This document shows, piece after piece, positions 2,571 through 24,475 of a stretch of DNA of 34,986 nucleotides. A program made the translations under genes and the position numbers. Within the stretch, counting starts at the first letter, position 1, and every line of letters begins with the position of its first letter. The notes below the pieces were generated by a model that saw only the letters and a program-made list of their open reading frames with translations, had not been told where the DNA came from and made no database searches. Source of the stretch: Bacillota bacterium (lineage in GTDB: Bacteria; Bacillota; UBA5301; JASBVW01). The stretch lies in contig JASBVW010000001.1 of NCBI GenBank assembly GCA_029961005.1, positions 1-34,986 of the forward strand, read 5' to 3'.

Positions 2571-4343
2571 TCACACCCCTTTCGTCGCGCTGTGAAATTG
2601 CAGTTCGTGGAGGCGGTAGTACGCCCCTTTGCGCGCCAGCAGTTCCTCATGCTTCCCTTCCTCCACAATCCGGCCTCCCTCGATCACGATGATGCGGTGA
2701 GCCCTCCGGATCGTAGAGAATCGGTGCGCTATGACAAAGGTGGTCCTCCCTTCCATCAGGTGCTCCAGCGCCTCTTGCACCAACTGCTCGGACTCGGGAT
2801 CCAGGGCCGAGGTAGCCTCGTCCAGGATGAGGATCCGCGGGTCGCGCAGGAGGGCGCGGGCGATGGCAATGCGCTGCCTTTGCCCCCCGGAAAGGCTAAT
2901 GCCGGCCTCGCTGACCCGAGTTTCATACCCCTCCGGCAGCGCCATGATGAAGTCGTGGGCGTTGGCCATGCGGGCCGCCGCTTTAATCTCCTCCTCGGTG
3001 GCGTCCGGCCGCCCGTAGGCAATATTTTCCCGCACCGTAAGGCCGAAGAGGACCGTCTCCTGCGGCACTAGGCCAATCTGGGCGCGCAGCGTGCGCAACC
3101 GCACCCGCCGGATGTCAAAGCCGTCGATCTCGATCCAGCCCTCCGTGGGGTCGTAAAAGCGCGGAATGAGGTTGACCAGTGTGGTCTTGCCCGCCCCGCT
3201 GGGCCCCACCAGGGCCACCACCTCGCCGGGCTCCACCGTCAGGTTGATGCCCTCCAGTACGGGCCGCCCCGGCTCGTAGGCAAACCCCACCTGGTGGAAG
3301 ACCACCTTCCCTTTAATCCGCGGCAGGGGAACCGCCCCGGGGAGGTCGTTCAGGTCCGGCTCTGTGTCCAGAAGGGCAAAGATGCGATCTGCCGCTCCCA
3401 AGGCCTGGTGGACCAGGGCATAAGCCCCGCTCAGGCCGGTGACGGGCGAGGCCACCGCCGCCAGGTACCCCAGGAAGGCCATCATTCCGCCCAGGGTCAA
3501 CCTCCCCTCCAGCACTTCGTGCCCCCCGTACCACAGCACCAAGGCCGTACCCACGATAAAGAGCAGGTCGACCAGGGGCACGATGGTGGCCGTGATTTGC
3601 ACCGACTTCATGGAAGCCGCAAAGTTAGCCTCGTTCTGCTGGGCAAACCTCTTGCGCTCGTGCTCCTCCATGGTAAAAGCCTTGACGATCCGGATACCGC
3701 TCAAAGTCTCCTGCAACACGGTGGTAAGGTCGGCCACCCGCTCCTGGAGCGCCCGGGTCACGGCGCGAATCTCTTTCCCGGCCCGGTTGACCGCGTAGGC
3801 GATGGCGGGGAAGACCACCAGGGTCAGCAGGGCCAAGCGCCAGTGGAGGACGAAGATGGCCACCAACGCCCCGCTCATGAGCAAAAGCTGCTGGGCCAGG
3901 GGCGCGACACCGTTCGTCACGCTGTTTTGGATGAGGGCGGTGTCGCTGGTGATGCGGGCAATCATCTCTCCCGTGTGGCGCCGCTCGTAAAAGGAGAGGG
4001 AATGCCGCTGCAGGTGCTGATAAATCTCGTTGCGGAGGTCCACCACCATCCTTTGGCCTACGTAGGCCATCAGGTACGCCTGGCCGTAGAGGAAGAGCCC
4101 CCGGACTAGGAAGAGGAACACCAGCGCTACTGCAAGGATATTCAGCATGAAGGCGCTCTTTTCCTCCCCGAGGACCCGATCCACCAGTTCCCGCCCCACC
4201 AGCATGGGCATGTAGAGATTGACCAGGGAGACCACCACCACGCACAAAAAGCCCAAAAGCACTTCCCGCCAGTAAGGCTTGGCGTAGCGCAACAGTCTCC
4301 AGCCGGTGCTCAGTTGTCTGCGGCTCCGCCGTTCTCCGTCCAT
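2571..4343 (-). CDS. msbA: MsbA-like ABC exporter (fused transmembrane domain and ATPase), probable lipid A flippase
   Basis: 590 aa with a six-TM N-terminal half. Walker A is GPSGAGKTT, the signature is LSGGQRQRIAIARAL and Walker B is ILILDEATSALD. The functional call rests on its position inside the lpx cluster. Confidence 0.75.
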   Translation of the reverse strand: MDGERRSRRQLSTGWRLLRYAKPYWREVLLGFLCVVVVSLVNLYMPMLVGRELVDRVLGEEKSAFMLNILAVALVFLFLVRGLFLYGQAYLMAYVGQRMVVDLRNEIYQHLQRHSLSFYERRHTGEMIARITSDTALIQNSVTNGVAPLAQQLLLMSGALVAIFVLHWRLALLTLVVFPAIAYAVNRAGKEIRAVTRALQERVADLTTVLQETLSGIRIVKAFTMEEHERKRFAQQNEANFAASMKSVQITATIVPLVDLLFIVGTALVLWYGGHEVLEGRLTLGGMMAFLGYLAAVASPVTGLSGAYALVHQALGAADRIFALLDTEPDLNDLPGAVPLPRIKGKVVFHQVGFAYEPGRPVLEGINLTVEPGEVVALVGPSGAGKTTLVNLIPRFYDPTEGWIEIDGFDIRRVRLRTLRAQIGLVPQETVLFGLTVRENIAYGRPDATEEEIKAAARMANAHDFIMALPEGYETRVSEAGISLSGGQRQRIAIARALLRDPRILILDEATSALDPESEQLVQEALEHLMEGRTTFVIAHRFSTIRRAHRIIVIEGGRIVEEGKHEELLARKGAYYRLHELQFHSATKGV

Positions 4344-5614
4344 CTCGCTCTCTCCTCCAGGACCTCCCGCACCGCCTCCACCAGGCGTCGGGCTGCTCCC
4401 GGCTCCCCCGCCAGGGAGCGCAGCTCCGCCGAAAGGCGGGCCCTCTCCTCGGCGTCAGCCAGGAGGGCCAGGGCCGCCTCGGCCACCTCTTCCGGGGTTA
4501 AAACCCCTTTCAGCTCGGGGACCAGCATCCGCCCCGCCAGCCGATTGGGCCAGGAGACAAAGGACATCCGGCGCGCCAGGGCTAAGACCGCCCGGCGCTT
4601 CAGCCATCTCCCGAGCCCCGGCAGGCGCCCTACGTACTCTAAAATGCCCTCCACCGGGATCTCCTCCGGCTTGTTCAGGGGCAAAAGGACGAGCATGGGC
4701 AACCCCGCCACCGCCATCTCTAGGGTATTGGTACCCGGAACAGTCAGAGCCAGGTGGGCCTCCGCCATCAGGTCGTATTGCAGCCCTTGCAGAGCCCACC
4801 AGAGCGGCCCGGCCTGGCCGGCCGGATGCAGCCGCCACGCCCGCACCCCGGGTCCCCAGGTTTCCCAGGGGCCGGAGACCTCTGCGGCTTCGCCGGGCGC
4901 TCCCCCGGTCTCCGGCCGGGGCCGGCCCAGGGCTTGAAGGAACTCCTCCGCCCGGAGAAAAGGCGAAAGGCTCCAGATGATCTCCACCTCGGGGCGAGCT
5001 GCGGCCAGAAGCTGTGCCACCCGCACAAAAAAAGCCGCCAAGTACCGAAACTCCACCGGGCGACTGCCCGGGAGGATCAGGAGGCGCGGCCCCGGCCCCA
5101 GCCCCAACACCTGCGCCACCTCACCGGGAGGGCGGGTAGGCTGGACGGCCTCTCGGATCAGGTTGCCGATCACCTTGACCCGTTCCGGCGGCACGCCCCG
5201 CCGGAGCACCAGCTCCTGCACCTGGCGGTTGGGGACCAAAAAACAGGCAAAAGAGCGCCGCCAGTGGACCTGCCCTTCCGTATACGCCAGCACGGGCCAG
5301 TGCAGCCGGCGGCCCAGCAGCACGGCGTGGGCCAGGTCTCCTCCCAGGAAGAGGACTACGCCGCGCCGGTCCGGGACAAAGCCGGCCGGGCGGCGCCCCA
5401 GCAAGGCCAGGCGCAGGTAATCCCTGTTGCCCCACACCAGGTCCACTCCGGGCAGGGAGGCTACCACTTCCTCTTCCCTGCCGCTGGCAAAGGCACAGGG
5501 GGGAAGGACCACAATGCGCCGGGCTCGCGGGAGTTGGCAGCTGAGCTCGCGCAGCACCGGCCTCAACCAGCCCGCTACTTCCCCCGGGCTATTGACCGTA
5601 ATCAGGACGTCCAT
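4310..5614 (-). CDS. Second LpxB-family (GT19-like) glycosyltransferase paralog
   Basis: 434 aa. The N-terminus VNSPGEVAGW parallels the AGE(T/A)SGD motif of LpxB. It also has ILPGSR, and TVPGTNTLEMAVAGLPMLVL followed by SWPNRLAGRMLVPEL, which parallels SGTATLEATCLGTPMVVV and LPNIVAGWRVVPEL of the adjacent LpxB. It overlaps both neighbours by 26 and 34 nt. Confidence 0.6.
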   Translation of the reverse strand: MDVLITVNSPGEVAGWLRPVLRELSCQLPRARRIVVLPPCAFASGREEEVVASLPGVDLVWGNRDYLRLALLGRRPAGFVPDRRGVVLFLGGDLAHAVLLGRRLHWPVLAYTEGQVHWRRSFACFLVPNRQVQELVLRRGVPPERVKVIGNLIREAVQPTRPPGEVAQVLGLGPGPRLLILPGSRPVEFRYLAAFFVRVAQLLAAARPEVEIIWSLSPFLRAEEFLQALGRPRPETGGAPGEAAEVSGPWETWGPGVRAWRLHPAGQAGPLWWALQGLQYDLMAEAHLALTVPGTNTLEMAVAGLPMLVLLPLNKPEEIPVEGILEYVGRLPGLGRWLKRRAVLALARRMSFVSWPNRLAGRMLVPELKGVLTPEEVAEAALALLADAEERARLSAELRSLAGEPGAARRLVEAVREVLEERARWTENGGAADN

Positions 5615-6767
5615 TGGCAGACCTCCCCCGGGCCACCGCCACCACCAATTTGGCCGCCCGACGAACCGCGCCAGGTTGTCCCAGGAGCTCTACCACCCGG
5701 TGCAGCCTCTCCCTCATCTCCTCCCGCAGCGGCGGGGAATCCAGCAAGGCGAGGGCTTCGGCCGCGATGCGTTCGGGCGTGGCCTGGCGCTGAATCAGCT
5801 CCGGAACCACCCGCCACCCCGCCACGATATTAGGCAGGGCGATGTAAGGTACGCGCACCAAAAGCCGCGCCAAAAGGTAGGTGGGCCAGGAAAGGCGGTA
5901 GACCACCACCATGGGCGTCCCCAGGCAGGTCGCTTCCAGAGTGGCCGTGCCGGAAGCCACCAGGATCAGGTCGCAAGCGGCCATGACCTCGTAGGTCCGC
6001 CCCTGCACCACCCGCACCGGCAAGTCCGCCCGGCGGCGCAGGTAGGGCTCCACCTGCTCCGGGGTGATGCTGCTGGCCAGGGGCAGAAGAAAGGCCGCAG
6101 CGGGATAGCGCCTCCGGATGCGCTCGGCCGCCCCCAAAAGAGGCGGAAGGAGGAACTCAATCTCCTGCCTCCGGCTGCCCGGCAAGAGCCCCACCACCGG
6201 GGACGATTCTCCCGCCAGCTCTCGGCGCAGCTCCTCTCGCCCCTTCTCCACGCGCACTATATCCAGGAGGGGATGGCCGATAAAGTTCACCTCCGCCCCC
6301 GCCTGGCGATAAACCTCGGCTTCAAAGGGGAAGACGGCCGCCACCAGGGCCACGGAGCGGGCCACCTGCAAGGCCCGGCCGCGCCCCCAGGCCCAGGCCG
6401 AGGGGCTAAAGTAGTAAACTACCGGGACGCCCATCTTCTTCGCCGCCTCGGCCAAGCGGAGGTGAAAACCGGGAAAGTCGATCACCACCAGCACATCGGG
6501 GCGGTTCTGGGCCAGGGCCCTTTCCAGGAGCGCCAAAGCGGACTTTAAGGCCCTGTAGCTGCGCAGGGCCTCCCAGAAACCAACCGTGCTGAGAGACGTC
6601 GGATCGAAGAGCAGTTCCACCCCTGCCTGCCGCATCTGCGGCCCGCCCATGCCAAAGAGTTGCACCTCCGGCACCAACTCCCGCAGGGCGCGGGCCAGAT
6701 AGGCGCCGTGCAGGTCGCCCGAGGTCTCGCCGGCTGAGATCATGATGTGCAGAGCCCGGTTGTTCAT
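5589..6767 (-). CDS. lpxB: Lipid-A-disaccharide synthase LpxB
   Basis: Canonical LpxB motifs are present: ISAGETSGDLHGA, LLPGSRRQEI, ASGTATLEATCLGTPMVVVYR and ALPNIVAGWRVVPELIQ. I place the start at ATG 6767 (MNNRALH), which forms an ATGA stop/start overlap with lpxI. The ORF-track start at 6803 is probably an upstream extension. Confidence 0.9.
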   Translation of the reverse strand: MNNRALHIMISAGETSGDLHGAYLARALRELVPEVQLFGMGGPQMRQAGVELLFDPTSLSTVGFWEALRSYRALKSALALLERALAQNRPDVLVVIDFPGFHLRLAEAAKKMGVPVVYYFSPSAWAWGRGRALQVARSVALVAAVFPFEAEVYRQAGAEVNFIGHPLLDIVRVEKGREELRRELAGESSPVVGLLPGSRRQEIEFLLPPLLGAAERIRRRYPAAAFLLPLASSITPEQVEPYLRRRADLPVRVVQGRTYEVMAACDLILVASGTATLEATCLGTPMVVVYRLSWPTYLLARLLVRVPYIALPNIVAGWRVVPELIQRQATPERIAAEALALLDSPPLREEMRERLHRVVELLGQPGAVRRAAKLVVAVARGRSANGRPDYGQ

Positions 6768-7564
6768 AAGGCTTCCACCGCTATCCCCGCCTCGTCTGCA
6801 CACCGCAGGGTCTCTTCGCGGTCCAGCAAAAAGGTCTTTCCAGCCTCGATACCCAGAGCGGAGGCGCCCACCTCGATCATCGTCCGAATGGTGGAGAGCC
6901 CTACGGTGGGGATGTCAAAGCGGAGGTCCTGGTTGGGCTTGCTGACCTTCACCACCACCGCGCCGCCCCGCCCCAGGGTGCCGCCCCGCCGGATAGCGGC
7001 GTCCGTGCCTTCGATGGCCTCCACGGCGAGGACGGCCTTCTCTTTGACCACCACGGTCTGCCCGATATCCAACCCTGCTACGGCCTTGGCTCGCTCAAAG
7101 CCAAAGCGCATGTCCTCCCGCTCCCGCAGGTCGGGGGAGCGGCGGGAGAGGACCCCGGCCCCCGGCAGCAAGGAGCCGATGAGCAGGGTCTGCTGGTGCA
7201 CCCGCAACCCTTCCCGCTCGAACTCCTCCACCAGCGCCCGGAGCAGGGAATCGTCGTTGCGGTCGGAGATCCGTTCTAAAAGGCGCTGAAAGCGCCAGTC
7301 CAGCTCCTGGCCCTGATAGAGCAGCTCTTTACTCACTTTGCCTACCAGGACCAGGTCGGCCGCGCCGGCATCCTGCAGCGTCCGGATAATCCGGTCCAAG
7401 AAGCCGGCCGGCAGGGAGTAGAGTTCGTCAGCCACCCGCGCCAGCTCCGGATCGGGATGGGGGGCCAGATTGACTACTACCGTGCGCAGCCCTTGCTCCC
7501 GCGCCGCGCGCCCAAAGGCCACGGGAAGGCGCCCCGCCCCCGCTACGATGCCAATGGTCTCCAC
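6764..7564 (-). CDS. lpxI: UDP-2,3-diacylglucosamine pyrophosphatase LpxI (DUF1009 family)
   Basis: 266 aa. It has IGIVAGAGRLP at the N-terminus, GLDIGQTVVVKEKAVLAVEAIEGTDAAIRRGG, KPNQDLRFDIPTVG and a C-terminal GIEAGKT, typical of LpxI. The GTG start at 7564 is preceded by TTGGAGGTTGGAGA. Confidence 0.85.
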   Translation of the reverse strand: METIGIVAGAGRLPVAFGRAAREQGLRTVVVNLAPHPDPELARVADELYSLPAGFLDRIIRTLQDAGAADLVLVGKVSKELLYQGQELDWRFQRLLERISDRNDDSLLRALVEEFEREGLRVHQQTLLIGSLLPGAGVLSRRSPDLREREDMRFGFERAKAVAGLDIGQTVVVKEKAVLAVEAIEGTDAAIRRGGTLGRGGAVVVKVSKPNQDLRFDIPTVGLSTIRTMIEVGASALGIEAGKTFLLDREETLRCADEAGIAVEAL

Positions 7565-7580
7565 TCTCCAACCTCCAATG

Positions 7581-7630
7581 AAAAGAAAGAGCCGCCGGCG
7601 GTCTCCGGAGGCCGCCCTCCCCTTCGGCTC
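7581..7630 (-). terminator. Intrinsic-terminator-like stem-loop with a U-tract in the lpxA-lpxI spacer
   Basis: On the minus strand an outer stem GAGCCG/CGGCTC encloses an inner stem GGCGG/CCGCC. TTTCTTTT follows immediately. The element ends 17 nt upstream of the lpxI start. Confidence 0.45.
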
Positions 7631-7714
7631 TCCCTACCCTATACACTTGACAGCCCGCCGTTCGAAGATACACTTCTTCTTCGACACCGCGGGCTGTTCC
7701 CCTTTCCCTGAGCC

Positions 7715-8569
7715 CTAAAATTCCCTCTCCTCGCCGGTAGGCGGCTCGGCGCGGTCCGAGCGGGCGGCGCAAATGCCGCGCTCGGCCTTGCGCAGAAAAT
7801 CCAACAGGTGTTGAATCTCCGGATAGAGCACCAGCTCCGCCTCGATGTAGCTGGCCGCCTGGGAGACGTTCCACTCCGAGCGGTACAGGGCGCGGTAAGC
7901 CTTCTTCAGCTCACTGCGCACCTCCCGCGGGATGCCGTTGCGGCGCAAGCCCACCACATTGAGCCCCACCGCTTTGGCCGGCCGCCCGTCCACCATGGTG
8001 AAGGGTAAGACGTCCTTCGTTACCTTGCTCATGGCCCCCACCATGGCCATCCTCCCTATGCGGCAGAACTGGTGTACGCCTGACATCCCCCCGATGACGG
8101 CTTGATCCTCCACCACCACGTGACCGCCCAGGGCTACGTTGTTCACCAGGACCACGTGGTCGCCCACCACGCAATCGTGCCCCACGTGGGCGTAGGCCAT
8201 GATCATGGTGTGATTCCCGATCCTGGTCTCGCCGCGCCCGCCCTCCGTGCCCCGGCTCAGCGAGGCATACTCCCTAATCACGTTGTAATCGCCAATGCGC
8301 AGGAAGCAGCCTTCTCCTTTGAAGCCCAAGTGCTGGGGATCGCCGCCCAGTGCGGCACCGGCTCCGATTCGATTGTGGCGCCCGATCACCGTCCAGCGCC
8401 CAATCACGGCGTGGGGTCCGATCACCGTCCCGTCTCCGATCTCCACGTCCTTTTCCACCACGGCATAGGGGCCGATGATCACTCCCACGCCCAGGCGCGC
8501 CTCCGGGTGCACCACAGCGGTCTCATGAATCTGGCAGCGGATGGGCACGACCTTTGATTCCTGTTTCAT
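7715..8569 (-). CDS. lpxA: Acyl-ACP--UDP-N-acetylglucosamine O-acyltransferase LpxA
   Basis: Hexapeptide-repeat beta-helix (IHETAVVHPEARLGVGVIIGPYAVV...), with GNHTMIMAYAHVGHDCVVGD and the C-terminal helical domain LRRNGIPREVRSELKKAYRALYRS. I prefer the ATG at 8569 (MKQESK), which has TGAGG 6 nt upstream. The ORF track starts at a TTG at 8581. Confidence 0.92.
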   Translation of the reverse strand: MKQESKVVPIRCQIHETAVVHPEARLGVGVIIGPYAVVEKDVEIGDGTVIGPHAVIGRWTVIGRHNRIGAGAALGGDPQHLGFKGEGCFLRIGDYNVIREYASLSRGTEGGRGETRIGNHTMIMAYAHVGHDCVVGDHVVLVNNVALGGHVVVEDQAVIGGMSGVHQFCRIGRMAMVGAMSKVTKDVLPFTMVDGRPAKAVGLNVVGLRRNGIPREVRSELKKAYRALYRSEWNVSQAASYIEAELVLYPEIQHLLDFLRKAERGICAARSDRAEPPTGEEREF

Positions 8570-9199: not shown

Positions 9200-10120
9200 T
9201 TAGCTTTCCCCTTCCCCGCCCCCGCCTTCTTCCCGGACCGCCCCGCTCTGGAGCCCTTCCCTGATCTTTCGGGCCAGAGCCGCATTCAGAGCGTGGCCGG
9301 AGCGCAAGGCAATGACGTGGGCGCGCAGGAACCCCGCCAGGGCCAGATCGCCCACCACATCCAGAACCTTATGGCGGGCCACCTCGTCGGGGAAGCGCAG
9401 CGGGCCCAGGTAGCCCCGGGGGCCGATCACCACCGCCAGCTCGGCAGTGGCTCCCCGGGCCAGCCCCTGGCGCCGCAGGGCTTCCACTTCTTCCAGAAAC
9501 CCGACGGTGCGGGCAGGGGCGATCTCGCGCCGAAAAGTCTCCGGATCAATGCGCCAATCGGCATACTGGGTGCCCACAGCGGGATGGGAGCTGACGAAGA
9601 CATAGGTGACTCGCAGCTCCTCCGCCGGCAGGGCCACCAGGTGAGCTTCCCCGGCGCTCACGGCCAGGGGCTGCCGGAGCCGGAGCCAGCGCCGCGGCTC
9701 CGGCAGCTCCACCAGGCCATCCTCCTCGAGCAGGCGCACGTAGACGGCGGCACTGCCGTCCCCTGCCGGGACCTCCGGCCCATCCAGCTCCACCCGGGCG
9801 TTGTCCACCTCCAGGCCGCGCAGAGCCGCCAAGAGGTGCTCCACCGTCTGCACGGCCTCCTCAGTACCCCAACCCAGAGCGGTGCAGCGGCGGCCGGCGA
9901 CCAGGTGCTCCGGATCGGCGGGGACGGGAGGTTTCTCCGGCCGGTCCGTCCGGCAAAAAAGGATCCCCTCTCCCGCCCCGGCCGGGAGGATCTTCATCCG
10001 CGCCGGCAGGCCCGTGTGCAGGCCCACGCCCTCCAAAGCCACAGGCCGCGCCACCGTGCGCTGGCGCCGGCCTCCTTCGGGAGGGACTAACTCCCCGCCT
10101 GTGCCAGCTTTCTCCTGCAT
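9200..10120 (-). CDS. lpxC: UDP-3-O-acyl-N-acetylglucosamine deacetylase LpxC
   Basis: Motifs QRTVARPVALEGVGLHTG, TVEHLLAAL, ELDGPEVPAGDGSA, HKVLDVVGDLAL and SGHALN are present. The ATG at 10120 overlaps the upstream ATPase gene by 34 nt. Confidence 0.9.
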   Translation of the reverse strand: MQEKAGTGGELVPPEGGRRQRTVARPVALEGVGLHTGLPARMKILPAGAGEGILFCRTDRPEKPPVPADPEHLVAGRRCTALGWGTEEAVQTVEHLLAALRGLEVDNARVELDGPEVPAGDGSAAVYVRLLEEDGLVELPEPRRWLRLRQPLAVSAGEAHLVALPAEELRVTYVFVSSHPAVGTQYADWRIDPETFRREIAPARTVGFLEEVEALRRQGLARGATAELAVVIGPRGYLGPLRFPDEVARHKVLDVVGDLALAGFLRAHVIALRSGHALNAALARKIREGLQSGAVREEGGGGEGES

Positions 10121-10905
10121 GCCGATATGGTTCTCTTCTGCCCCGCGATCTCCTGCTGGCTGAGGTCGGCCAGGTGGGCCTGCCAGAGGTCGCGGTAGCG
10201 CCGGCCCAATTCCGAGCGGGGCCTGGCCATCACGAGCGAAGGCGGCCCCTCCTCCACCACCCGGCCCCGGTCCAAAAGGACCAGGCGGTCGGCCGCCCGC
10301 AGGGCAAAGGGCACCTCATGGGTGACGATGAGCATGGTGGGGTGGCTGGTGGCCGTCAGTTCCTGCATCACATCCAGTACCTCGCGCACCATGATGGGGT
10401 CCAGCGAGGCGGTGGGCTCATCCCACAGCATCAACTCCGGCTGCTGGGCCAGGGCCCTGGCGATTCCCACGCGCTGCTGCTCTCCGCCGCTGAGCTGGTG
10501 CGGATACCGGTAGAGGTGGCGGGCCATGCCTACCCGCCGCAGGGCCTCCGCCCCGCGCTGCTCCGCCTCACTGCGCTTCACCCCGCTCAGCACCAGGCCC
10601 AAGATGACGTTCTCCAGGACGGTCAAGCGCTCCACCAGGTTGAAGTGTTGGAAGACAAACCCCACGCGCCGGCGCAGGCGCAGGAGCTCAGTCGGGCTCA
10701 TCCGCCTCACGTCTTGCCCTCCGACCAGGATCTCCCCCTCGTCCGCTTCCACCAGCCGGTTGATGCACCGGATGAGGGTGGACTTGCCACACCCGCTGGG
10801 GCCCATGATGACGGCGATCTCCCCCTCCTCCACCTTCAGGTCGACGCCGTTCAGGGCCACCGTCCGCCCGTAGCGCTTCTTCAAGCCCTTGACTTCGACT
10901 CGCAC
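10087..10905 (-). CDS. ABC transporter ATP-binding protein resembling the polar-amino-acid/phosphonate importer type (GlnQ/HisP/PhnC-like)
   Basis: Walker A is GPSGCGKSTLIRCINRL, the Q-loop region is FVFQHFNL, the signature is LSGGEQQRVGIARAL, Walker B is LMLWDEPTASLDP and the H-loop is VTHE. A C-terminal tail of about 30 aa runs into the lpxC start. The start is a GTG at 10905. Confidence 0.85.
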   Translation of the reverse strand: MRVEVKGLKKRYGRTVALNGVDLKVEEGEIAVIMGPSGCGKSTLIRCINRLVEADEGEILVGGQDVRRMSPTELLRLRRRVGFVFQHFNLVERLTVLENVILGLVLSGVKRSEAEQRGAEALRRVGMARHLYRYPHQLSGGEQQRVGIARALAQQPELMLWDEPTASLDPIMVREVLDVMQELTATSHPTMLIVTHEVPFALRAADRLVLLDRGRVVEEGPPSLVMARPRSELGRRYRDLWQAHLADLSQQEIAGQKRTISACRRKLAQAGS

Positions 10906-10926
10906 TCTTCTCCCCCCTGGCCGCTC

Positions 10927-13314
10927 TTACTTAAACTTTTGCCGTCGGCGGTTCAGCCACTGCAGGATCCCGGGGCGGCCGGCCGGGATGACAATCTCCC
11001 TCATGACCTGGGCGTAGGTAAGCCCTACAGCCTCTCCGGCCAGGATCTGCTCGTCCCGCACCGGACTGACCCGCTCGGCCAAGAGGCTGGTCAAAAGCCC
11101 CAGGGCCAGCCCTACCGGGACCGCCCCCCAGGCCGGCAAAAGCGGCAACCTTCCGCCGCTCCCCAGGTAGACGCCGGTAAAGATGGCCGCGCCGGCCAAC
11201 GGCCCGTACAGCCAGGAGGCGTCCGGACGCCACTGCCACCACCGGCGGTTGGCCCCGCGGCACCGCCGCTCGGAGAGCCGGCGCAGAGCGGAGATGACGG
11301 TAGAGTGGTCCAGGAGGAGCACCAGGAAGGTGAAAACCAGCGCCACCAGCCCGGCGATGGTGCCCCGCACGCTGTTGAGCAGGTGCAGCACGGTCCCTCG
11401 CACGTCAGGTTCCACGCTGCCCACCGGCAGGGCAAAGAGCGAGACCCGGTCGCTTTTGACCTCCCGGCCGATGGCCGCCTTCAGCGCCGCAGGCTCCAGG
11501 TCTCGGTCCAAAAGGAGGGAGAGGCTCTGCCCGGGGAGGGTCTCTCCCCCGATGTACTGGTCGATCAGCCGCACGGAACGGCCGATCTCCTCATCCCGCA
11601 GGTCGGGAAGGGCAGCCTTGATCTCTTCCAGCTGCGCCTTCAGGGCAGCCACGTCCAACTGTTCCAGGGCCTCCAGCCGCTCCAGCACAGAAGTGAGCTG
11701 CAGGCGGAGAGTGGCGGTATCCACTCCCTGCATGGCTTCCAGAGTAGATCCGGCGGCCTGCTCCATCTGCCCCAAAAGTTCCCTGACTACCCCCGTGGAA
11801 CGGCTGAGGCGGGAGAAGCCCTGCAGTTCCACTACAAAGAGGTCGATCTGCTTCCGAAAACCGGCCAGGATCTGTACCACCGGGTTCAGGCGATTCAAGA
11901 CGGAGGAGAGCTCGCTCTGGCCCGGGGCGGGCGCGGCCCCTACCCCTTCCACCTGGGAGATGAGGCTGCCGATGGAGGTGCTGACCCGGTTGAGCTCGGC
12001 CACCAAACGATCCACGTCGGACTGTCTGATCTGGGCCAGCGGCCCCTCCAGGCCGGCGTTGACTTGCTGGAGGACCTCCTGCGCCTGCCGGAGTTCTTCC
12101 CTCGTCCGGTCATAGGCCTCCAGGGCGGCCAAGACCTCCTCGGAAGCCCCCCGCGCCTCGGCCGCCAGGCCGTGGAGCTGCTCCACCATGCGCAGGCTCT
12201 CTTCCAGGTTGCGGATGATGCGCCAGCGCTCGTTCTCCACCCTGATCAGGCCCACCTGGGGCCCGATCTCATCGCCTTTGACCACGCGATAGGCCGTCAG
12301 GGCCGCCTGATCCAGGCCGGCACCGGACTGCAAATAAGGGGCGGGATCGCCCTCCACCACCAGGCCGCGGGCGGTCTGCCCCTCTACCGCCTGGATGCGC
12401 ACCCGCAGGTGATCGGAGCGCACCCGCTCTCCCACTACGGGCGGAACTGACGAAGACCCCTGGGCTACCACCTCGTCTCCCGGCCGGAGCGGCTCCCAAC
12501 CCTGCAGCCGCACGGTAACGCGGGAGGCGTAGCCCTCTAAGAAGCGACGCACCTCCGCGAGGGTAGAGACAAAGGCCTGAAAGTCATCCCCTCCCTCACC
12601 CCCGGTGATGTCCACGGCCGTCCGGGGATGGAACTGGTCCCGCAGCCGGTTTACGATGCGCTCGCTCAAAGCGGGAAGGTCCTCTGTCTGATAGCCCAGG
12701 GGCAGGCGCACCTCCACCACCTGGTAACGGCGCAGGAGCCGCCGCAGCGAGGCGTTAACGCTGCTGGTGGCCCCGGCGTCCTTCAAGACGGCGGTAATGC
12801 TCTCCCCGTGGCGGAAGGCAAAGTCAACCCCCGGGAGGTCTTCAATCTGGGGCAAGAGGAGGGGCTGGGCGCCGGCGGGGACGCCGCGCACGGTGAGGCT
12901 GGGTTCAATGATGAAGGTATAGCCGGCATAACCGGGAAGGCCGTTGAAGTAGGTGCCGATGCTCTCAAAGACGCGCCTGGTGCGGAGTTCTGCCGGCAGA
13001 GCCACAAAGAAGTTGACTTTGCCCGCGATGGCAAGGCCTTCTTTTACCTTAGCTCCCGGCAACTGGCGCAGCACGCGGCCCATCTCGGCGCGGGCCGCCC
13101 CTTTGGCTTCTTCCCGCACCTGGACGATCAGGTCGTACTCGCCCGCCTCGCCCAAAAGGCCGGTCACCGTCTCGCCGAAGTAGGCGTCGGTGGCCCAGGC
13201 CACGCCTGCAGCCACTGCAATCCCGAGGAGGATAGTCAGCAGAACGGCTACTGCCACGTCGCGCCGAAATCCGTCCCGAAATAACAAGAGGCCGTCGCCC
13301 CACGGTATGCCCAT
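10927..13314 (-). CDS. Large membrane protein of unknown family and putative partner of the adjacent ATPase: one TM, a roughly 600-aa ectodomain, three TMs, and a C-terminal EAA-like coupling motif
   Basis: The N-terminal TM is VAVAVLLTILLGIAVAAGVAW. The long extracytoplasmic region has alpha/beta segments (YDLIVQVRE, YQVVEVRLPLG), a beta-rich segment (RVTVRLQGWEPLRPGDEVVAQG) and a long helical, coiled-coil-like stretch. Three C-terminal TMs follow. The protein ends with GEAVGLTYAQVMREIVIPAGRPGIL, which resembles the EAA loop of type I ABC importer permeases. Only 21 nt separate it from the ATPase gene. Confidence 0.7.
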   Translation of the reverse strand: MGIPWGDGLLLFRDGFRRDVAVAVLLTILLGIAVAAGVAWATDAYFGETVTGLLGEAGEYDLIVQVREEAKGAARAEMGRVLRQLPGAKVKEGLAIAGKVNFFVALPAELRTRRVFESIGTYFNGLPGYAGYTFIIEPSLTVRGVPAGAQPLLLPQIEDLPGVDFAFRHGESITAVLKDAGATSSVNASLRRLLRRYQVVEVRLPLGYQTEDLPALSERIVNRLRDQFHPRTAVDITGGEGGDDFQAFVSTLAEVRRFLEGYASRVTVRLQGWEPLRPGDEVVAQGSSSVPPVVGERVRSDHLRVRIQAVEGQTARGLVVEGDPAPYLQSGAGLDQAALTAYRVVKGDEIGPQVGLIRVENERWRIIRNLEESLRMVEQLHGLAAEARGASEEVLAALEAYDRTREELRQAQEVLQQVNAGLEGPLAQIRQSDVDRLVAELNRVSTSIGSLISQVEGVGAAPAPGQSELSSVLNRLNPVVQILAGFRKQIDLFVVELQGFSRLSRSTGVVRELLGQMEQAAGSTLEAMQGVDTATLRLQLTSVLERLEALEQLDVAALKAQLEEIKAALPDLRDEEIGRSVRLIDQYIGGETLPGQSLSLLLDRDLEPAALKAAIGREVKSDRVSLFALPVGSVEPDVRGTVLHLLNSVRGTIAGLVALVFTFLVLLLDHSTVISALRRLSERRCRGANRRWWQWRPDASWLYGPLAGAAIFTGVYLGSGGRLPLLPAWGAVPVGLALGLLTSLLAERVSPVRDEQILAGEAVGLTYAQVMREIVIPAGRPGILQWLNRRRQKFK

Positions 13315-13372
13315 GCTCCTCCCACCCGTTTCCCATTATAGCACGGGCCCTGGAAGGCTCGGCCATGTAATT

Positions 13373-14476
13373 TCATGTACCTCTGCTCGCCTTCTCCAGT
13401 TCCTCCAGGCGTTTGCGCAGCTGGCGCAGCTCCTTCCATAACTCCGGCAGGCGGGCGGAGGCGGCCTTGATCCGCATCTCCTCGGCGTGCGGTCGGGCGG
13501 GAATGCCGAAGACGTGGGACCCCGGCGGCAAGCTGGAGGCCACCACGCTGGCTGCCGCCACTACGCAGTCGTCCCCTATTTCCAGGTGGTCCGCCACCCC
13601 GGCCTGGCCGGCCAGGATGACCCGGTCTCCCAGGCGCGCGCTGCCGGCCAAGCCGCACTGGGCCACGAGGAGGCAGTCCTCCCCCACTTGGACGTTGTGC
13701 CCGATCTGGACTAAGTTATCGATCTTGGTGCCCCGGCCGATGCGGGTGGCGCCGCAGGTGGCCCGGTCGATGGTGGTGTTGGCGCCGATCTCCACGTCGT
13801 CCTCCACCACTACCGTCCCGATCTGGGGGACTTTGCGGTGCTTCCCCTCCACGGTGACAAAGCCAAAACCGTCCGCCCCCAGGACGGCCCCGGCGTGGAT
13901 GATGACGTTGCGCCCCACCCGCACGCCCTCGCACAGCACGGCGTTGGCGTGAATGACGCTCCCCGCCCCCACGCGCACCCCCGGCCCGAGGTAGACCCCC
14001 GGGTAGATGACCACCCCGTCTCCCACCTCGGCTTCCGCCTCAATCACCACGTGGGCACCGATGGCCACCTCTTTCCCCAGCCGGGCCCGCGGGCTGATCA
14101 CCGCCGTAGGGTGAACGCCCACCGCCACGGGCGGGGGCGGGGCAAAGGCCGCCAAAACCCGGGCAAAGGCCAGGCGAGGGTTGTCCACCAAAAGCAGGGA
14201 CTTCTCCGTCACCCTCGGCCGGCCGGCCGCCTCGGCCTCCTTTTGTAACGCGGCGTAGTCGCTGCGGGCCAGGATAACCGCCCCCGCGCCCCCGGCGAGC
14301 GCCTCCCTCGCCCGCCGCAGATCGGCGGCAAAGGTGATCTCCGCCGGCCCCGCCTCAGCCAGGGGCGCCACCCCTCTAATGGTCAGATAGGGATCCCCCA
14401 CCAGCTCCCCCTCCGCCAGGGTAGCCAGCTCGGTGAGCTTCCTCGGTTCTCCGGACCTGCCCTCTGCGCGCTGCAT
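13373..14476 (-). CDS. lpxD: UDP-3-O-acylglucosamine N-acyltransferase LpxD
   Basis: The N-terminal uridine-binding domain ([30 protein letters not shown]) is followed by a long hexapeptide beta-helix ([32 protein letters not shown]) and a C-terminal helix. Confidence 0.92.
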
Positions 14477-16616: not shown

Positions 16617-17996
16617 CTAAAGATTTCCCTGTACCCTCAGCCAAAAGCGGGCCCGGTCGTCGCCCACCAGCTCCACCGCCATGAACTCGTTCATTCTCAC
16701 CTCTATCCCCACCTCCATACCGCGGCCGGCGAAAGATCCGGAGCCATCCGCCGCCCCGCCGACGGCCACCCCGCCCAAGCCGGTGCTGATGTGTAAGGTC
16801 TCGCGGGGACCCAGCCGGTGCCTGATCTCCAGCCGGGAAAGCCGGGCGGCCGGGTCGTAGCTGAGGTCCAGCCTGGTGGTGGGCGGAAATTCCCAGCCCG
16901 CTCCCACCTGCCACTCCGCGTGGAGGTGGTTGAGGATGGTTCGGTTGGCCAGAAAGGCCTCGCCCCTCTCCCCGACCCGCCAGCCCAGGTGCCCTTCCAG
17001 GGAGGGGTCCGGGGCGCTCTGGCCGATATTCAGCACCGCCAGGAGAGAGAAGCGAAAGGCCGTGGAATCCAAGTCCAGCTCCAGGGCCGCTTCCGGAGCA
17101 GGGTTGATTTGCACCTTGGCCCTGAGGCCGTAGCGGCCCACCCCCGCTTTCTCTTCAATATACTGCTCCAGGGCCGCCGCCAGGTTCCGGCGATAGCGCT
17201 CTAGCAGCGGCACTGGAATCCCCTCCAGCAGCCGGGCCTGCTCCTCAATTTGGGGCTGGAGGCTGTGCACCACTACCCCGGGCAGGGTGGAGGAGCGCAG
17301 GAGAACCCTCACCCGCTGTACCACCGGCGGGTCCGGGGTCAGCCTGACCCGGAGCTTCACCTCTTCCCCCCACTCGCCGGCCACAGCCGCGCGGTAGCCG
17401 GGCAAGGCCTTGGCCGCTACTCCTTCCACCAGGGGAGCCAAGGCAAAACGGGCCCATTCCATAGCCTCCACCGGCGCCCCCACCACCAACTCCTCCACCT
17501 GTCCCTGGAGGGCGGCCAGCTCGCGGTCCAAAGCCGCCTGTAGCCTGGGATGGAGTCCGTCGACCTGCACCTGCAGCTCTACTTTCCGCACCCGCGGCCC
17601 CCGCGGCTTTAACTGAATGGTCAGGAGGGCCGTGCGGCCGGGCTCCAGGCGGACGGTCTGAACTTCAAACCCGCTCAAGACGCGGGTAAAGACCTCCTGA
17701 ATGGCTCTCTCCAACGGCCCCCGCAGGTACTGGACGTCGTCCACCTTCTGGTTCAAGAGGACGGCCTCCCCCACCACCCGCAGGCTGCTTTCTATGCGTT
17801 CCAGGAGGCCAAAGCGGGGCAGCCCGTCTTCGGCCAGCACCCGCACCGCCACAGACTGCACGCGCGGAGGCTCCGGCGCCGTTTCCCCAGCCTCTGCCGC
17901 CCGGGCGGCAGGTGCAGCGACAAGGAACCCGGCGAGGAGGAAGGCCCCTATCCGTCGCCGGGTGGCCCTGGCCCATGCGCGGAGGAGTCCAGGCAC
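16617..17996 (-). CDS. Secreted protein of unknown function, a putative outer-membrane protein
   Basis: 459 aa. The signal peptide is GAFLLAGFLVAAPAARA, followed by AEA. The N-terminal two-thirds are mixed alpha/beta. The C-terminal 150 aa or so show alternating hydrophobic patterns (FRFSLLAVLNIG, AEWQVGAGWEF, TRLDLSYD, RLEIRHRL, MEVGIEVRM, RFWLRVQGNL) suggesting amphipathic beta strands. I recognise no family. Confidence 0.6.
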   Translation of the reverse strand: MPGLLRAWARATRRRIGAFLLAGFLVAAPAARAAEAGETAPEPPRVQSVAVRVLAEDGLPRFGLLERIESSLRVVGEAVLLNQKVDDVQYLRGPLERAIQEVFTRVLSGFEVQTVRLEPGRTALLTIQLKPRGPRVRKVELQVQVDGLHPRLQAALDRELAALQGQVEELVVGAPVEAMEWARFALAPLVEGVAAKALPGYRAAVAGEWGEEVKLRVRLTPDPPVVQRVRVLLRSSTLPGVVVHSLQPQIEEQARLLEGIPVPLLERYRRNLAAALEQYIEEKAGVGRYGLRAKVQINPAPEAALELDLDSTAFRFSLLAVLNIGQSAPDPSLEGHLGWRVGERGEAFLANRTILNHLHAEWQVGAGWEFPPTTRLDLSYDPAARLSRLEIRHRLGPRETLHISTGLGGVAVGGAADGSGSFAGRGMEVGIEVRMNEFMAVELVGDDRARFWLRVQGNL

Positions 17997-19796: not shown

Positions 19797-20507
19797 CTAC
19801 GGGTGTCCGGCTGAGCCGCGCAAAGAATCAGAGGCCAGTTTGACCAGCTGGTTGAGATCTAACTCGATCTGGGGAGCCGGCCGGTCAGCCTCGGCTGCGG
19901 CGGCTGCCGGATCGGCCGCCGCCGGAGCAGCCGCGGCCGGCGCCACAGGCTCCGCGAGCGCCGGGGTCGGGCCGCCACCGGTCACCCCGTCCGCCCCTTT
20001 AACCTCCTCGGCCGCACTCAATTCTCCGCCTCCGGCAGCGGTGGAGGCAGCGAGGGGCGCGGTCGGCACGGCCTCAGCCCCCACCGGCCGTACAGCCGCC
20101 ACTGCCTTGGGCCGCGGAGCAGGGGCCGGAGGCTGCTCCCGCGGCGCCGGCGCTGCAGGAGCAGGAGTCACGGCCGCCACGGGGGTCGGCAAAACCGGGG
20201 CCGCAGCCGGCTGGGCCAGCCACCCGAGCACCGCCAGGGCCACCGCCAGAAGACCGCCCCCCCAGGCCGCCGCCCGGAAGAGGCGCCCCCGGGGCCGGGC
20301 GTCCGCCCTGCCGGGCAAAGCCCAGGCCTGCCGGCGCACGGACCTGCCCTGCCGGCTCATCTCCCAAGCGCGGCGCACCTCCCCCAGAACCAGGGAGAGG
20401 GTCAACTCGCCCCGCACCGGATTATCTTTGCTGAACTCCTGCTCGGCCTGCTCCAGCCACTGCCTGGCAAAGCGCAGATGCCGCACCACCCCGTGCTTTT
20501 CACCCAT
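19797..20507 (-). CDS. Single-pass membrane protein with an Ala/Pro-rich ectodomain, a candidate anti-sigma or regulatory partner of the upstream sigma factor
   Basis: 236 aa. A helical cytoplasmic N-terminus of about 55 aa is followed by one TM (WGGGLLAVALAVLGWLA) and then a low-complexity A/P-rich tail. The start lies 14 nt after the sigma gene stop. No zinc-finger (HxxxCxxC) anti-sigma motif is present. Confidence 0.5.
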   Translation of the reverse strand: MGEKHGVVRHLRFARQWLEQAEQEFSKDNPVRGELTLSLVLGEVRRAWEMSRQGRSVRRQAWALPGRADARPRGRLFRAAAWGGGLLAVALAVLGWLAQPAAAPVLPTPVAAVTPAPAAPAPREQPPAPAPRPKAVAAVRPVGAEAVPTAPLAASTAAGGGELSAAEEVKGADGVTGGGPTPALAEPVAPAAAAPAAADPAAAAAEADRPAPQIELDLNQLVKLASDSLRGSAGHP

Positions 20508-24200: not shown

Positions 24201-24475
24201 GAAGGCCCTTGCACCGCCAGGTCTCCGGTGAGCCGGACCTGCTCTCGTCCCCACCCTCGCCCGGACCCGACCAGCCGGCCCTCCAGGAGCCCTTCGCACT
24301 GAGGAACCCCGGCCAGTCCGGCGTCCCGGAGGGCGCGGGAGAGGGTGGCCAGATCCACCCTCTGCACCCGGAGGACCCCCGCAAAGGCCCAGGGGTTCCC
24401 CCGGCCGCCCACCACCCCTTCCCCGGTGGCGTCACCGGCTGGGCCGCGGACGGCCAGGCGGCGGACGGTCCACAC
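21263..24475 (-). CDS. tamB: TamB-like translocation and assembly module protein, C-terminal 1070-aa portion (DUF490 end)
   Basis: Long repetitive beta-rich sequence. The C-terminal DUF490-like segment is QFGKYLVDDLYVTYSRSL...FEYRLKPGVVFTSGFDSRGEVWLGLEGKLRF, ending in Phe. This frame opens only 8 codons upstream of the nominal GTG at 24475. Confidence 0.8.
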   Translation of the reverse strand: MWTVRRLAVRGPAGDATGEGVVGGRGNPWAFAGVLRVQRVDLATLSRALRDAGLAGVPQCEGLLEGRLVGSGRGWGREQVRLTGDLAVQGPSFRNWKADRLEAGFMLAGGVWHFNELKVFRRGAVAVASGEVSPEGELALAVDLRQVDLAELWPLLPEEWRGRAGAGEVRGRLRFHGRVEGSLADPAVSGWFGVAEAAWRDRTFERAEGYLRWQRPRLELEQVAILHGSSAYRLEGELLFEAAGPVARLTGEVERGEIADLLRLAGVSWDLKGEAYGQVALHGPLSAPALEGKVSVAKGRVAGQDFRRAEIQFKGRGREILLDSFTIESPLGSGYGSGTIQGEELAIDLRIEQVQLAAFPQLAASLGRAAGTVEFTGRLSGTLKDPHLGGEVKAQSLVLGPYLLDRAAGPVEYRGGRLYLTGLRLQRGQEEYTLNGELALQPDPAFEVKVEFRRARLSELLKIADQRPPAGVEALCDGTAWLTGRASHPRVRVNLLAAEGRRGEGDLTAALAMEMEGERVSLERFLVVQKGGGSLSARGTWSTAGALDLSVAAESFAVESVLRMWDPAFPLEGKLSGQARITGSAVSPCLEGSFDLEDGRMGEVPFQRAEGTVRLAEGAVELEGLQVAADGQLLQVEGRIPLPPALAERLSVAAGAAATPVDLTVSLPRGSLKILNLAWGRQAIQEGRGALNLRLIGPWDEVGVYGAFQFEQLSLSAPPFTVAEGEGRLLFRGHQVVIERASAQVNEGTAAGRGILTLRGLAVQEVDLYLQAEDLHYSDSFLDGLIDADLSLRGPANLPLLQGRVQLARTTLNLGGHLGGGHSPLDAALDVELTNADDVRIVGGESVDVRAYGRLKIGGTLREPTLAGRAEATRGVIVYLGTVFRVSEGSAVFTSLHGINPQLEVKAQARAEDALIGLRISGQVPELDLQLSSDPPLSEEEILERLALTGRISRLLRGGEAGEVTGQEMLSLLDEEIRGTVFKGLEHAVRDVLQLDEFRLERGFAEEQVQMQFGKYLVDDLYVTYSRSLNLEKPDESLRFEYRLKPGVVFTSGFDSRGEVWLGLEGKLRF

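Follow-up and report, generated by a model that had tools for sequence, protein, structure and literature searches.

A four-helix membrane protein with an importer-type coupling loop and its ABC ATPase beside lpxC in the outer-membrane gene cluster of diderm Firmicutes

Seven types of ATP-binding cassette (ABC) systems have been described, of which type I folds have 5-6 or more transmembrane helices (TMs) and type VII folds four (PMC8386196). Diderm Firmicutes, the main model for the origin and loss of the outer membrane, possess a large outer-membrane gene cluster (PMC5007114), and their envelope is devoid of several proteobacterial parts, among them the Lol pathway and BamD in Negativicutes (PMC5007114, PMC13018214). 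Here we analyse a stretch of 34,986 nucleotides from a Bacillota bacterium (assembly GCA_029961005.1, contig JASBVW010000001.1, positions 1 to 34,986; hereafter the window), which represents this cluster and carries a two-gene ABC module between lpxD and lpxC, the latter being the gene for the committed step of lipopolysaccharide synthesis. The module consists of gene X (10927..13314), whose open reading frame (ORF) translates into a 795-aa inner-membrane protein deposited as hypothetical protein QJR13_00055 [Bacillota bacterium], and of a gene for a 272-aa ABC ATPase (10087..10905). The window has a G+C content of about 67% and every gene in it is encoded on the minus strand, on which all features given below with window coordinates lie.

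The pair is mentioned neither in the paper describing the cluster (PMC5007114) nor in the 2026 study of Acetonema longum (PMC13018214), which names the adjoining F7NM16 (LpxL homologue), F7NM17 (YjbH), SonA and SonB, and full-text literature searches returned no description of it. The membrane architecture of X fits none of the seven described ABC types (PMC8386196) and its place in the lipopolysaccharide (LPS) cluster is undescribed; the pair is still an ABC system, and so not categorically new. We propose, with a probability of about one half, that X and the ATPase form a type I-derived ABC mechanotransducer acting in LPS/outer-membrane biogenesis or homeostasis.

Topology, coupling loop and ancestry of the module

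Hydropathy and the AlphaFold2 (AF2) model both gave four TMs for X, with a large periplasmic domain situated between TM1 and TM2. The model used was based on a 47-sequence alignment and reached a predicted local distance difference test score (pLDDT) of 88.8 and a predicted TM-score of 0.62, with TM1 and TM2 as extended helices; prediction from the single sequence reached pLDDT 41.6. TM1 (approximately aa 16-42), with a cytoplasmic N-terminus and a hydropathy peak of 2.77 at aa 20-38, continues into a periplasmic stalk to form one AF2 helix (aa 16-54; 13153..13269), gap-free and conserved across the family alignment. TM2-TM4 (aa 638-749; 11068..11403) correspond to AF2 helices 638-685, 699-719 and 728-749, and no region of the family is less conserved than the cytoplasmic loop joining TM2 to TM3, which measures 0-21 aa and has a gap fraction of 0.5. 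The most conserved region is the cytoplasmic C-terminal tail (aa 750-795; 10930..11067), in which two short helices (754-762 and 767-778 in the AF2 model) bear the EAA-type coupling loop AGEAVGLTYAQVMREIVIPAGRPGIL, followed by the basic end LNRRRQKFK. This distribution of conservation, high in the EAA tail and low in the TM2-TM3 loop, points to coupling through the tail. The protein terminates 13 residues past RPG, after ...AGEAVGLTYAQVMREIVIPAGRPG, a segment which aligns with the EAA loops of MetI (aa 103-148) and PotC and with positions 66-111 of the BPD_transp_1 profile.

Searching the whole PDB with a profile of the last ~170 residues returned PotC (E 0.026 and 0.076) and MetI (E 0.07 and 0.09) as the top four matches, with an amino-acid permease lower down the list. 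PotC residues 66-182 were colinear with X over the end of TM2, TM3, TM4 and the EAA loop. BPD_transp_1 (PF00528) was the sole recurrent Pfam family, matched by 18 of the 47 full-length members and 24 of the 30 C-terminal fragments (best E = 1.8e-5), the next most matched family being found in three members. In the window protein, aa 739-784 matched the above-mentioned positions of this 184-position profile with sub-threshold 14.3 bits; X covers the profile only up to the coupling loop, and therefore the region for the last two helices is absent. The topology is in agreement with this: cytoplasmic N-terminus with TM1, periplasmic loop, TM2-TM4 and cytoplasmic EAA loop represent the first two thirds of a six-TM permease, and TM2-TM4 of X probably correspond to TM2-TM4 of the six-TM type I importer permeases. 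Because of the colinearity with PotC and because no other Pfam family recurs, we consider X a truncated type I permease and not a relative of FtsX/MacB; judged by sequence, its membrane part is a remote, cut-short relative of type I importer permeases.

Signatures of other ABC classes were sought as well. Neither FtsX (PF02687) nor MacB_PCD (PF12704) was found in the window protein or among the 25 commonest families of the 47 members and 30 fragments, and a conserved major coupling helix in the TM2-TM3 loop, a feature of type VII systems, was not found. An arrangement of at least five TMs with two of them after the EAA loop was observed neither in X nor in family members or fusions. MlaD/MCE and MlaE gave no match, Mce4_CUP1 scoring weakly in the helical region of three of 47 members (best E 0.011); YhgE/Pip and ABC2_membrane-type families gave no match in Pfam or NCBIfam, and a substrate-binding protein (SBP) family was detected neither in the window genes nor in the periplasmic domain.

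An exhaustive HMMER search against 1.84 billion representative proteins identified relatives of X in 198 representative clusters, 110 of them at E<1e-30 and many full-length (595-905 aa); their database names, where given, read "hypothetical protein" and once "ABC transporter permease". Every full-length relative terminates in the consensus AGEALGLsyxxIMREIVIPxGRPGLLxxLNRRRxxF, the best-conserved stretch of the family, and in the 111 motif-bearing members a median of 13 residues follows RPG, with a hydrophobic segment in none. Several representatives of 930-1000 aa end in ATPase-type sequence. In one such fusion, P0118, ~28 residues separate the EAA tail (aa 634-679) from an ATPase domain (aa 708-929) that shares 51% identity with the window ATPase. 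The end shared across the family together with these natural fusions shows that the truncation of X is not due to a frameshift, and a pseudogene or frameshifted permease was thus ruled out. As the fusions join the two proteins, the neighbouring ATPase is considered the dedicated partner of X, and an interface between them appears likely on the same grounds. Searches with whole X in Pfam (E<=0.001), NCBIfam and PDB sequences gave no match, and word-indexed protein searches, whether started from the complete protein, from the whole alignment or from an alignment of the C-terminus, recovered hardly anything beyond the query itself and one relative of 91% identity.

The ATPase (Pfam ABC_tran, 134.9 bits) contains the motifs STLIRCINRL, FQHFNL and LSGGEQQRV. 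Its NCBIfam scores were highest for GlnQ (246 bits), ProV (234), TcyN (231) and PhnC (225), against 191 for FtsE and 175 for LolD, and among solved structures ArtP, ArtN and HisP were best (186-219 bits; ArtP/ArtN 211-219), followed by MetN (~180) and FtsE (150). These scores place the partner ATPase in the polar-amino-acid/type I importer clade and closer to importer ATPases than to FtsE or LolD. Its identity with LptB was rejected, separate lptB-like genes being present in the same clusters.

The periplasmic domain (aa 55-637; 11404..13152) was delimited from AF2 secondary structure. According to the model, it starts with two ferredoxin-like beta-alpha-beta-beta-alpha-beta units (aa 62-134 and 139-203), conserved in the family. 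Next comes an alpha/beta unit split into two parts (213-270 and 597-635), between which lie a beta-rich segment (281-360) and a long bundle of seven helices (362-588), the first being 60 residues long. Homologues differ in the length of the beta segment and of two helices (H2/H3), and those of 595-620 aa can lack them altogether. In Pfam, NCBIfam and PDB sequences no relatives of the domain were found apart from de novo ferredoxin designs; in the PDB, a profile of its N-terminal part matched only these designs and apolipoprotein E noise. A Foldseek comparison of the complete model with PDB structures yielded only unspecific helical bundles (ClyA, designed bundles, chemoreceptors) with query-normalised TM-scores <=0.15, as well as faint Wzc and ACT-domain matches.

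These results bear on the original prediction, made from the nucleotide sequence without database searches, which had described the pair as a hybrid of an importer-type ATPase and a partner of MacB-like topology ending at an EAA-like motif. The hybrid character holds. ORF, motifs and family scores confirm the importer-type ATPase at 10087..10905 with the motifs quoted for it; ORFs, hydropathy and AF2 agree with the 21-nt gap, the single N-terminal TM, the ectodomain of about 600 aa and the three C-terminal TMs. The motif, too, is real and the alignment with MetI and PotC makes it a true EAA-type loop at the very end of the protein; the claim could be extended, since TM2-TM4 and the loop are together colinear with PotC, which is more than a mere motif. 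Of the ectodomain description, alpha/beta units, a beta-rich segment and long helices (up to 60 residues) were recovered in the AF2 model; no MCE homology was found. The candidates MCE, YhgE/Pip and SBP fusion were likewise set aside, no homology having emerged in Pfam, NCBIfam or PDB profile searches. Of the matches proposed for checking, those to BPD_transp_1 recurred, all of them below the gathering threshold, and those to MacB/FtsX were seen neither in the window protein nor among the commonest Pfam families of its relatives. The statement that X cannot be assigned to any described family stands, as whole-protein searches in Pfam, NCBIfam and PDB revealed no full-length homology to a characterised family; nor did any other outcome that the prediction had named as refuting emerge within the analyses made.

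Gene order, second copies and distribution

Loci were collected with a motif-seeded scan of one genome per GTDB species, using one peptide motif, which yielded 126 relatives, and 80 of these 126 loci were kept. Five very divergent members were looked up in addition; the pairing of X with the ATPase was counted over 85 loci, Halanaerobiales members being left out of the synteny counts. A relative of the ATPase followed X directly in 82 of 85 loci, the other three being a fusion (L083), a locus with a more divergent ATPase (L086) and a contig end (L059). lpxC came after the module in 61 of the 74 evaluable loci, and in L083 and L086 in addition. The usual order was X-ATPase-lpxC-fabZ-lpxA-lpxI-lpxB-msbA; even the five most divergent members looked up, one of them a fusion, showed X-ATPase-lpxC-(fabZ or a sugar-nucleotide transferase gene)-lpxA-lpxI-lpxB, with msbA next wherever the contig was long enough. 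Measured on longest ORFs, the median gap was ~190 nt upstream of X, 23 nt from X to the ATPase and 96 nt from the ATPase to lpxC, overlaps of X and ATPase being frequent.

In the window, X and the ATPase are separated by 21 nt (10906-10926) with a GGAGG-type ribosome-binding site before each start codon. The longest-ORF call of lpxC (9200-10120; LpxC Pfam 298.7 bits), which flanks the ATPase, overlaps its stop codon by 34 nt. On the other side, a 58-nt spacer between the stop codon of lpxD (13373-14476) and the start of X contains, by direct reading, a perfect extended -10 promoter-like element, TGcTATAAT (13335-13343). It is kept in the 91%-identical relative (L001, 9971-9979) though neighbouring bases differ, and was not listed by a consensus promoter scan, which demands both hexamers. 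The element suggests that X, ATPase and lpxC begin a transcription unit of their own. No terminator-like hairpin was found in the intergenic spacers.

The genes upstream of X were less uniform. X is preceded by lpxD in the window and L084, by lpxD plus an unannotated gene in L085, by lpxD-yjbH-lpxL in Sporomusa, and in other lineages by lptF/G, lptD-like and lptC/A-like genes, some directly adjoining. In Negativicutes, as in Sporomusa aerivorans (L031, 6227-7741), the module is separated from lpxD by genes for a YjbH-like outer-membrane protein and for a lipid A acyltransferase of LpxL type; they match F7NM17 and F7NM16 of A. longum (PMC13018214). As the upstream genes vary, the conserved link is that with lpxC and not with the lpxD-lpxC interval.

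The loci without lpxC comprised twelve second copies, eleven of them in Sporomusaceae assemblies from which an lpxC-linked locus was obtained as well, and one further case. In the neighbour-joining (NJ) tree the twelve formed one clade within the Negativicutes branch. Second-copy loci were found, for example, in Sporomusa rhizae (L044, 2877-11102) and Sporomusa sp. KB1 (L045, 5853-11105); one second copy lies directly after an efflux operon of TetR, membrane fusion protein (MFP) and resistance-nodulation-division (RND) genes, and another is divergent beside an FtsH paralogue. A link with RND/MFP genes was rejected, as it was seen at one locus only and is not conserved, and the remaining neighbours of the second copies (PhzF, HD, FtsH, LarA, CheX) share no theme. 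In the further case, L015, X and its ATPase come directly before an ABC ATPase gene and DUF3084, with a RuvX-like gene two genes beyond, and the lpxC-msbA block is missing. It should be added that an ABC ATPase of ~240-260 aa followed by DUF3084 occurs both there (4838-8305) and in L083 (20966-22799), the RuvX-like gene being present in L015. DUF3084 and RuvX-like families were listed as candidate new outer-membrane-related proteins (PMC5007114), and the module of L015 still lies among genes of the outer-membrane cluster.

Hosts among the 80 listed loci of the scan were Sporomusa, Pelosinus, Dendrosporobacter, Anaerospora, Lucifera, Massilibacillus and many metagenome-assembled genomes (MAGs) of Bacillota, to which cluster look-ups added Orenia, Selenihalanaerobacter and Halanaerobaculum, all Halanaerobiales. 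The named hosts among the listed matches were all Sporomusaceae or Halobacteroidaceae. The module was therewith found in three lineages of diderm Firmicutes, namely Negativicutes (Sporomusaceae), Halanaerobiales and Limnochordia-like MAGs, and loci lacking an outer-membrane context were, among the 80 of 126 relatives listed in this one-motif scan, only the second copies in Sporomusaceae. Negativicutes, Halanaerobiales and MAG lineages fell into separate groups of the NJ tree, a simple tree without support values, which is consistent with an old and mainly vertical inheritance of the module. Veillonella, Selenomonas and Acidaminococcus gave no named match among those listed, the protein clusters being small (1-53 members). 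Two loci from PRJNA950955 labelled as Patescibacteria (L034) and Bacteroidota (L038) contain the Bacillota-type X-ATPase-lpxC-fabZ-lpxA-lpxI block; the tree places both with Bacillota MAGs and they are probably mis-binned.

The original prediction had seen in the module a lineage-specific guest, which fails in view of its presence in all three diderm Firmicute lineages. It had also asked whether the pair always stands between lpxD and lpxC; this is not so, yjbH/lpxL or lpt genes intervening on the side of lpxD. Its argument that the context speaks for a role in LPS or the outer membrane is supported by the position of lpxC in the 61 of 74 loci. The accompanying idea of a substitute for the Lol pathway is weakened, because Halanaerobiales, whose Lol system was reported to be likely complete apart from LolB (PMC5007114), also carry the module.

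As regards the wider neighbourhood, family scans of the window revealed, in order, flgF/G, flgA, flgH, flgI, two envelope-related genes, tamB, a sigma factor gene, a 236-aa ORF and bamA; then a 459-aa ORF, an OmpH/Skp-like gene, a 361-aa ORF, a second OmpH/Skp-like gene and lpxD; and finally, beyond X, the ATPase and lpxC, the genes fabZ, lpxA, lpxI, lpxB, an lpxB-like gene and msbA. The ORFs flanking bamA, of 459 aa directly after it (16617-17996) and of 236 aa directly before it (19797-20507), have no Pfam matches. In A. longum these positions are occupied by SonA, a POTRA beta-barrel protein, and SonB (PMC13018214), and relatives of the 459-aa ORF (23-30% identity) come after bamA in Negativicutes loci. 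The TamB region (21263-25698) consists of two ORFs, 21263-24475 and 24094-25698, which lie in different frames and share 382 nt; in the 91%-identical relative TamB is called as one gene of 1467 aa, and the split may be a frameshift or an error of the MAG assembly. The second, divergent lpxB-like gene (4310-5614, 434 aa) adjoins lpxB, has a short LpxB match only, and is kept beside lpxB in many related loci.

Proposed function and rival explanations

Architecture, truncation, pairing with the ATPase, the remote relationship to BPD_transp_1, distribution and synteny are results of the analysis, and what we propose on stoichiometry, mechanotransmission, the role in LPS or the outer membrane and the substrate is inferred. 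The ancestor of X would have been a six-TM permease of a type I importer, which lost the two helices following the EAA loop and gained a periplasmic domain of ~600 aa between TM1 and TM2. In a presumed X2-ATPase2 complex the EAA helices at the extreme C-terminus would dock in the groove of the GlnQ/ArtP-type ATPase. With four TMs per subunit and eight in total, and without the TM5-6 pair, such a complex would probably have no canonical import pathway. If there is no ordinary translocation path, it would therefore be the periplasmic domain that the ATP cycle moves: ATP binding and hydrolysis would be passed on through TM4, TM2 and the TM1/TM2 stalk and converted into motion of the ferredoxin-like domains and the helical bundle. 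This would be mechanotransmission as in MacB, LolCDE and FtsEX, reached convergently from a different ancestor. The site of action is suggested by the position at the head of the lpxC-fabZ-lpxA-lpxI-lpxB-msbA block, from which the periplasmic work would serve LPS/outer-membrane biogenesis, either by acting on lipid A-core/LPS, or on a different envelope lipid, on the periplasmic side of the inner membrane, or by reporting the periplasmic LPS status back to the pathway, with LPS sensing controlling LpxC.

Several points weigh against this proposal. The BPD_transp_1 scores all lie under the Pfam gathering threshold (26.4 bits, against the 14.3 of the window protein) and the PDB E-values for the type I relationship are marginal (0.026-0.09). 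The loss of the translocation path was deduced from helix counting, and Pfam, NCBIfam, PDB and Foldseek searches of the periplasmic part brought up no substrate-specific domain. Synteny is an association and no proof of function, and the second copies in Sporomusaceae stand in variable, mutually unrelated contexts. Furthermore, the module is probably absent from the abundant host-associated Negativicutes, as indirectly deduced from the listed matches, and it would therefore not be indispensable for an LPS outer membrane.

A bolder reading, which we offer tentatively and hold to be rather less probable, sees in the pair the founding member of a new ABC architecture, a four-TM mechanotransducer of type I descent coupled through its C-terminus, ancestral to the outer-membrane cluster of diderm Firmicutes and representing a component of LPS biogenesis or homeostasis so far missing in Terrabacteria. 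In that case it could control LpxC in organisms lacking the proteobacterial circuit, or pass LPS or lipid from the inner membrane to a periplasmic bridge. Owing to its lpxC-linked conserved position, this unannotated ABC machine is in any case a concrete and testable candidate for one missing envelope function.

Among the rival explanations, an LPS-homeostasis sensor is unlikely, albeit itself a special case of the mechanotransducer. Its periplasmic domain would detect LPS or lipid A in the outer leaflet of the inner membrane and its ATPase would signal to the stability or activity of LpxC, as a possible functional analogue of the PbgA(YejM)/LapB/FtsH circuit. lpxC is the single invariant neighbour, whatever is upstream, and the ATPase and lpxC overlap or are closely spaced; given the promoter-like element before X, these three genes may be one unit, and one second copy, an anecdotal case, adjoins the FtsH paralogue. 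ABC systems that signal rather than transport do exist, BceAB and FtsEX being examples. The likeness to PbgA(YejM)/LapB, namely that a membrane protein bearing a large periplasmic domain is linked genetically to lpxC, is a possible functional one only: there is no resemblance in sequence or architecture, and PbgA is not an ABC system. Against a sensor, no LpxC-, FtsH- or LPS-binding domain was recognised in the module, adjoining lpxC equals adjoining the whole lpx-msbA block, and the second copies are not beside lpxC.

It is quite improbable that the module is a MacB/FtsX-type (type VII) system in disguise, that is, a pump for efflux or for activating hydrolases, partnered by a TolC-like duct or a cell-wall enzyme, that came to lie in the LPS cluster by accident. 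Four TMs, a large domain between TM1 and TM2, TM1/TM2 stalks and ferredoxin-like (Porter-like) units would suit it, as would the second copy after the TetR-MFP-RND operon; however, that RND neighbourhood concerns a single locus, and the synteny with lpxC is far too regular for an accident. Nor do the sequences comply, with FtsX and MacB_PCD missing from the Pfam results for window X and from the commonest families of its relatives, an ATPase nearer to importers than to FtsE or LolD, and no conservation in the X family of the loop that holds the major coupling helix in MacB.

The helical bundle might instead reach peptidoglycan or the outer membrane as an envelope spacer or tether, or belong to a sporulation/germination device in which ATP serves to remodel an inner-type into an outer membrane. 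The long helices (up to 60 residues, ~9 nm), strongly variable in length from one lineage to another, would fit, and many Sporomusaceae and Halobacteroidaceae, the two families of all named hosts listed, form endospores. Moreover, germination has been linked to SonA and SonB, which are encoded in the same cluster and similarly distributed (PMC13018214). We nevertheless judge this very improbable, as no peptidoglycan-binding or outer-membrane-anchoring domain was found in X, the synteny is with lpxC and not with sporulation genes, and the absence from non-sporulating Negativicutes is only indirectly deduced.

Least probable of all is that the module imports or recycles a substrate by way of a fused substrate-binding domain, like GlnPQ or OpuA, perhaps taking up an envelope precursor: the importer-clade ATPase, the EAA loop and the lack of a separate binding-protein gene nearby, which makes a fused receptor plausible, are outweighed by four TMs instead of the 5-6 or more of type I (PMC8386196), with the post-EAA helices missing in every member and in the fusions, and by a periplasmic domain with no SBP family, half of which is a length-variable helical bundle.

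Comparison with known ABC systems

The ABC machines already assigned to LPS and the outer membrane, LptB2FGC (type VI), MsbA (type IV) and MlaFEDB, resemble the X module in being ABC-driven and encoded among LPS/outer-membrane genes, and differ from it by their LptF_LptG, ABC_membrane, MlaE and MCE domains, none of which X possesses. Because the same clusters contain msbA and lptB/lptFG as genes of their own, the module is an addition to these systems and not a replacement.

With type I importers (MetI, PotC, ArtQ/HisM, ModB and MalG, with ATPases MetN, PotA, ArtP, HisP and GlnQ) X shares the loop of EAA-x3-G-x9-I-x-LP type, its position on two short cytoplasmic helices, the colinear preceding TMs and TM1 with the N-terminus inside, and its ATPase partner comes from the same clade. 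It deviates from them in lacking TM5-TM6, in having a 600-aa periplasmic domain in place of the short TM1-TM2 loop, in the lack of a binding-protein gene nearby and in its context of LPS synthesis instead of nutrient uptake. The proposed mechanotransducer would, if true, indicate that the pore-forming half of an importer permease can be lost and the protein turned into a periplasmic force transducer.

Type VII systems (MacB, LolCDE, FtsEX) are similar in overall build, having likewise four TMs and a large stalked periplasmic domain with alpha/beta (Porter-like) units between TM1 and TM2, and a periplasmic rather than a transmembrane task is likely for X too. In contrast to them, X has no FtsX/MacB_PCD homology, pairs with an ATPase of another clade and carries a C-terminal EAA loop instead of the helix between TM2 and TM3. 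The X module would thus, if our proposal is true, have converged on MacB, LolCDE and FtsEX from a different ancestor, outside the present seven-type classification (PMC8386196).

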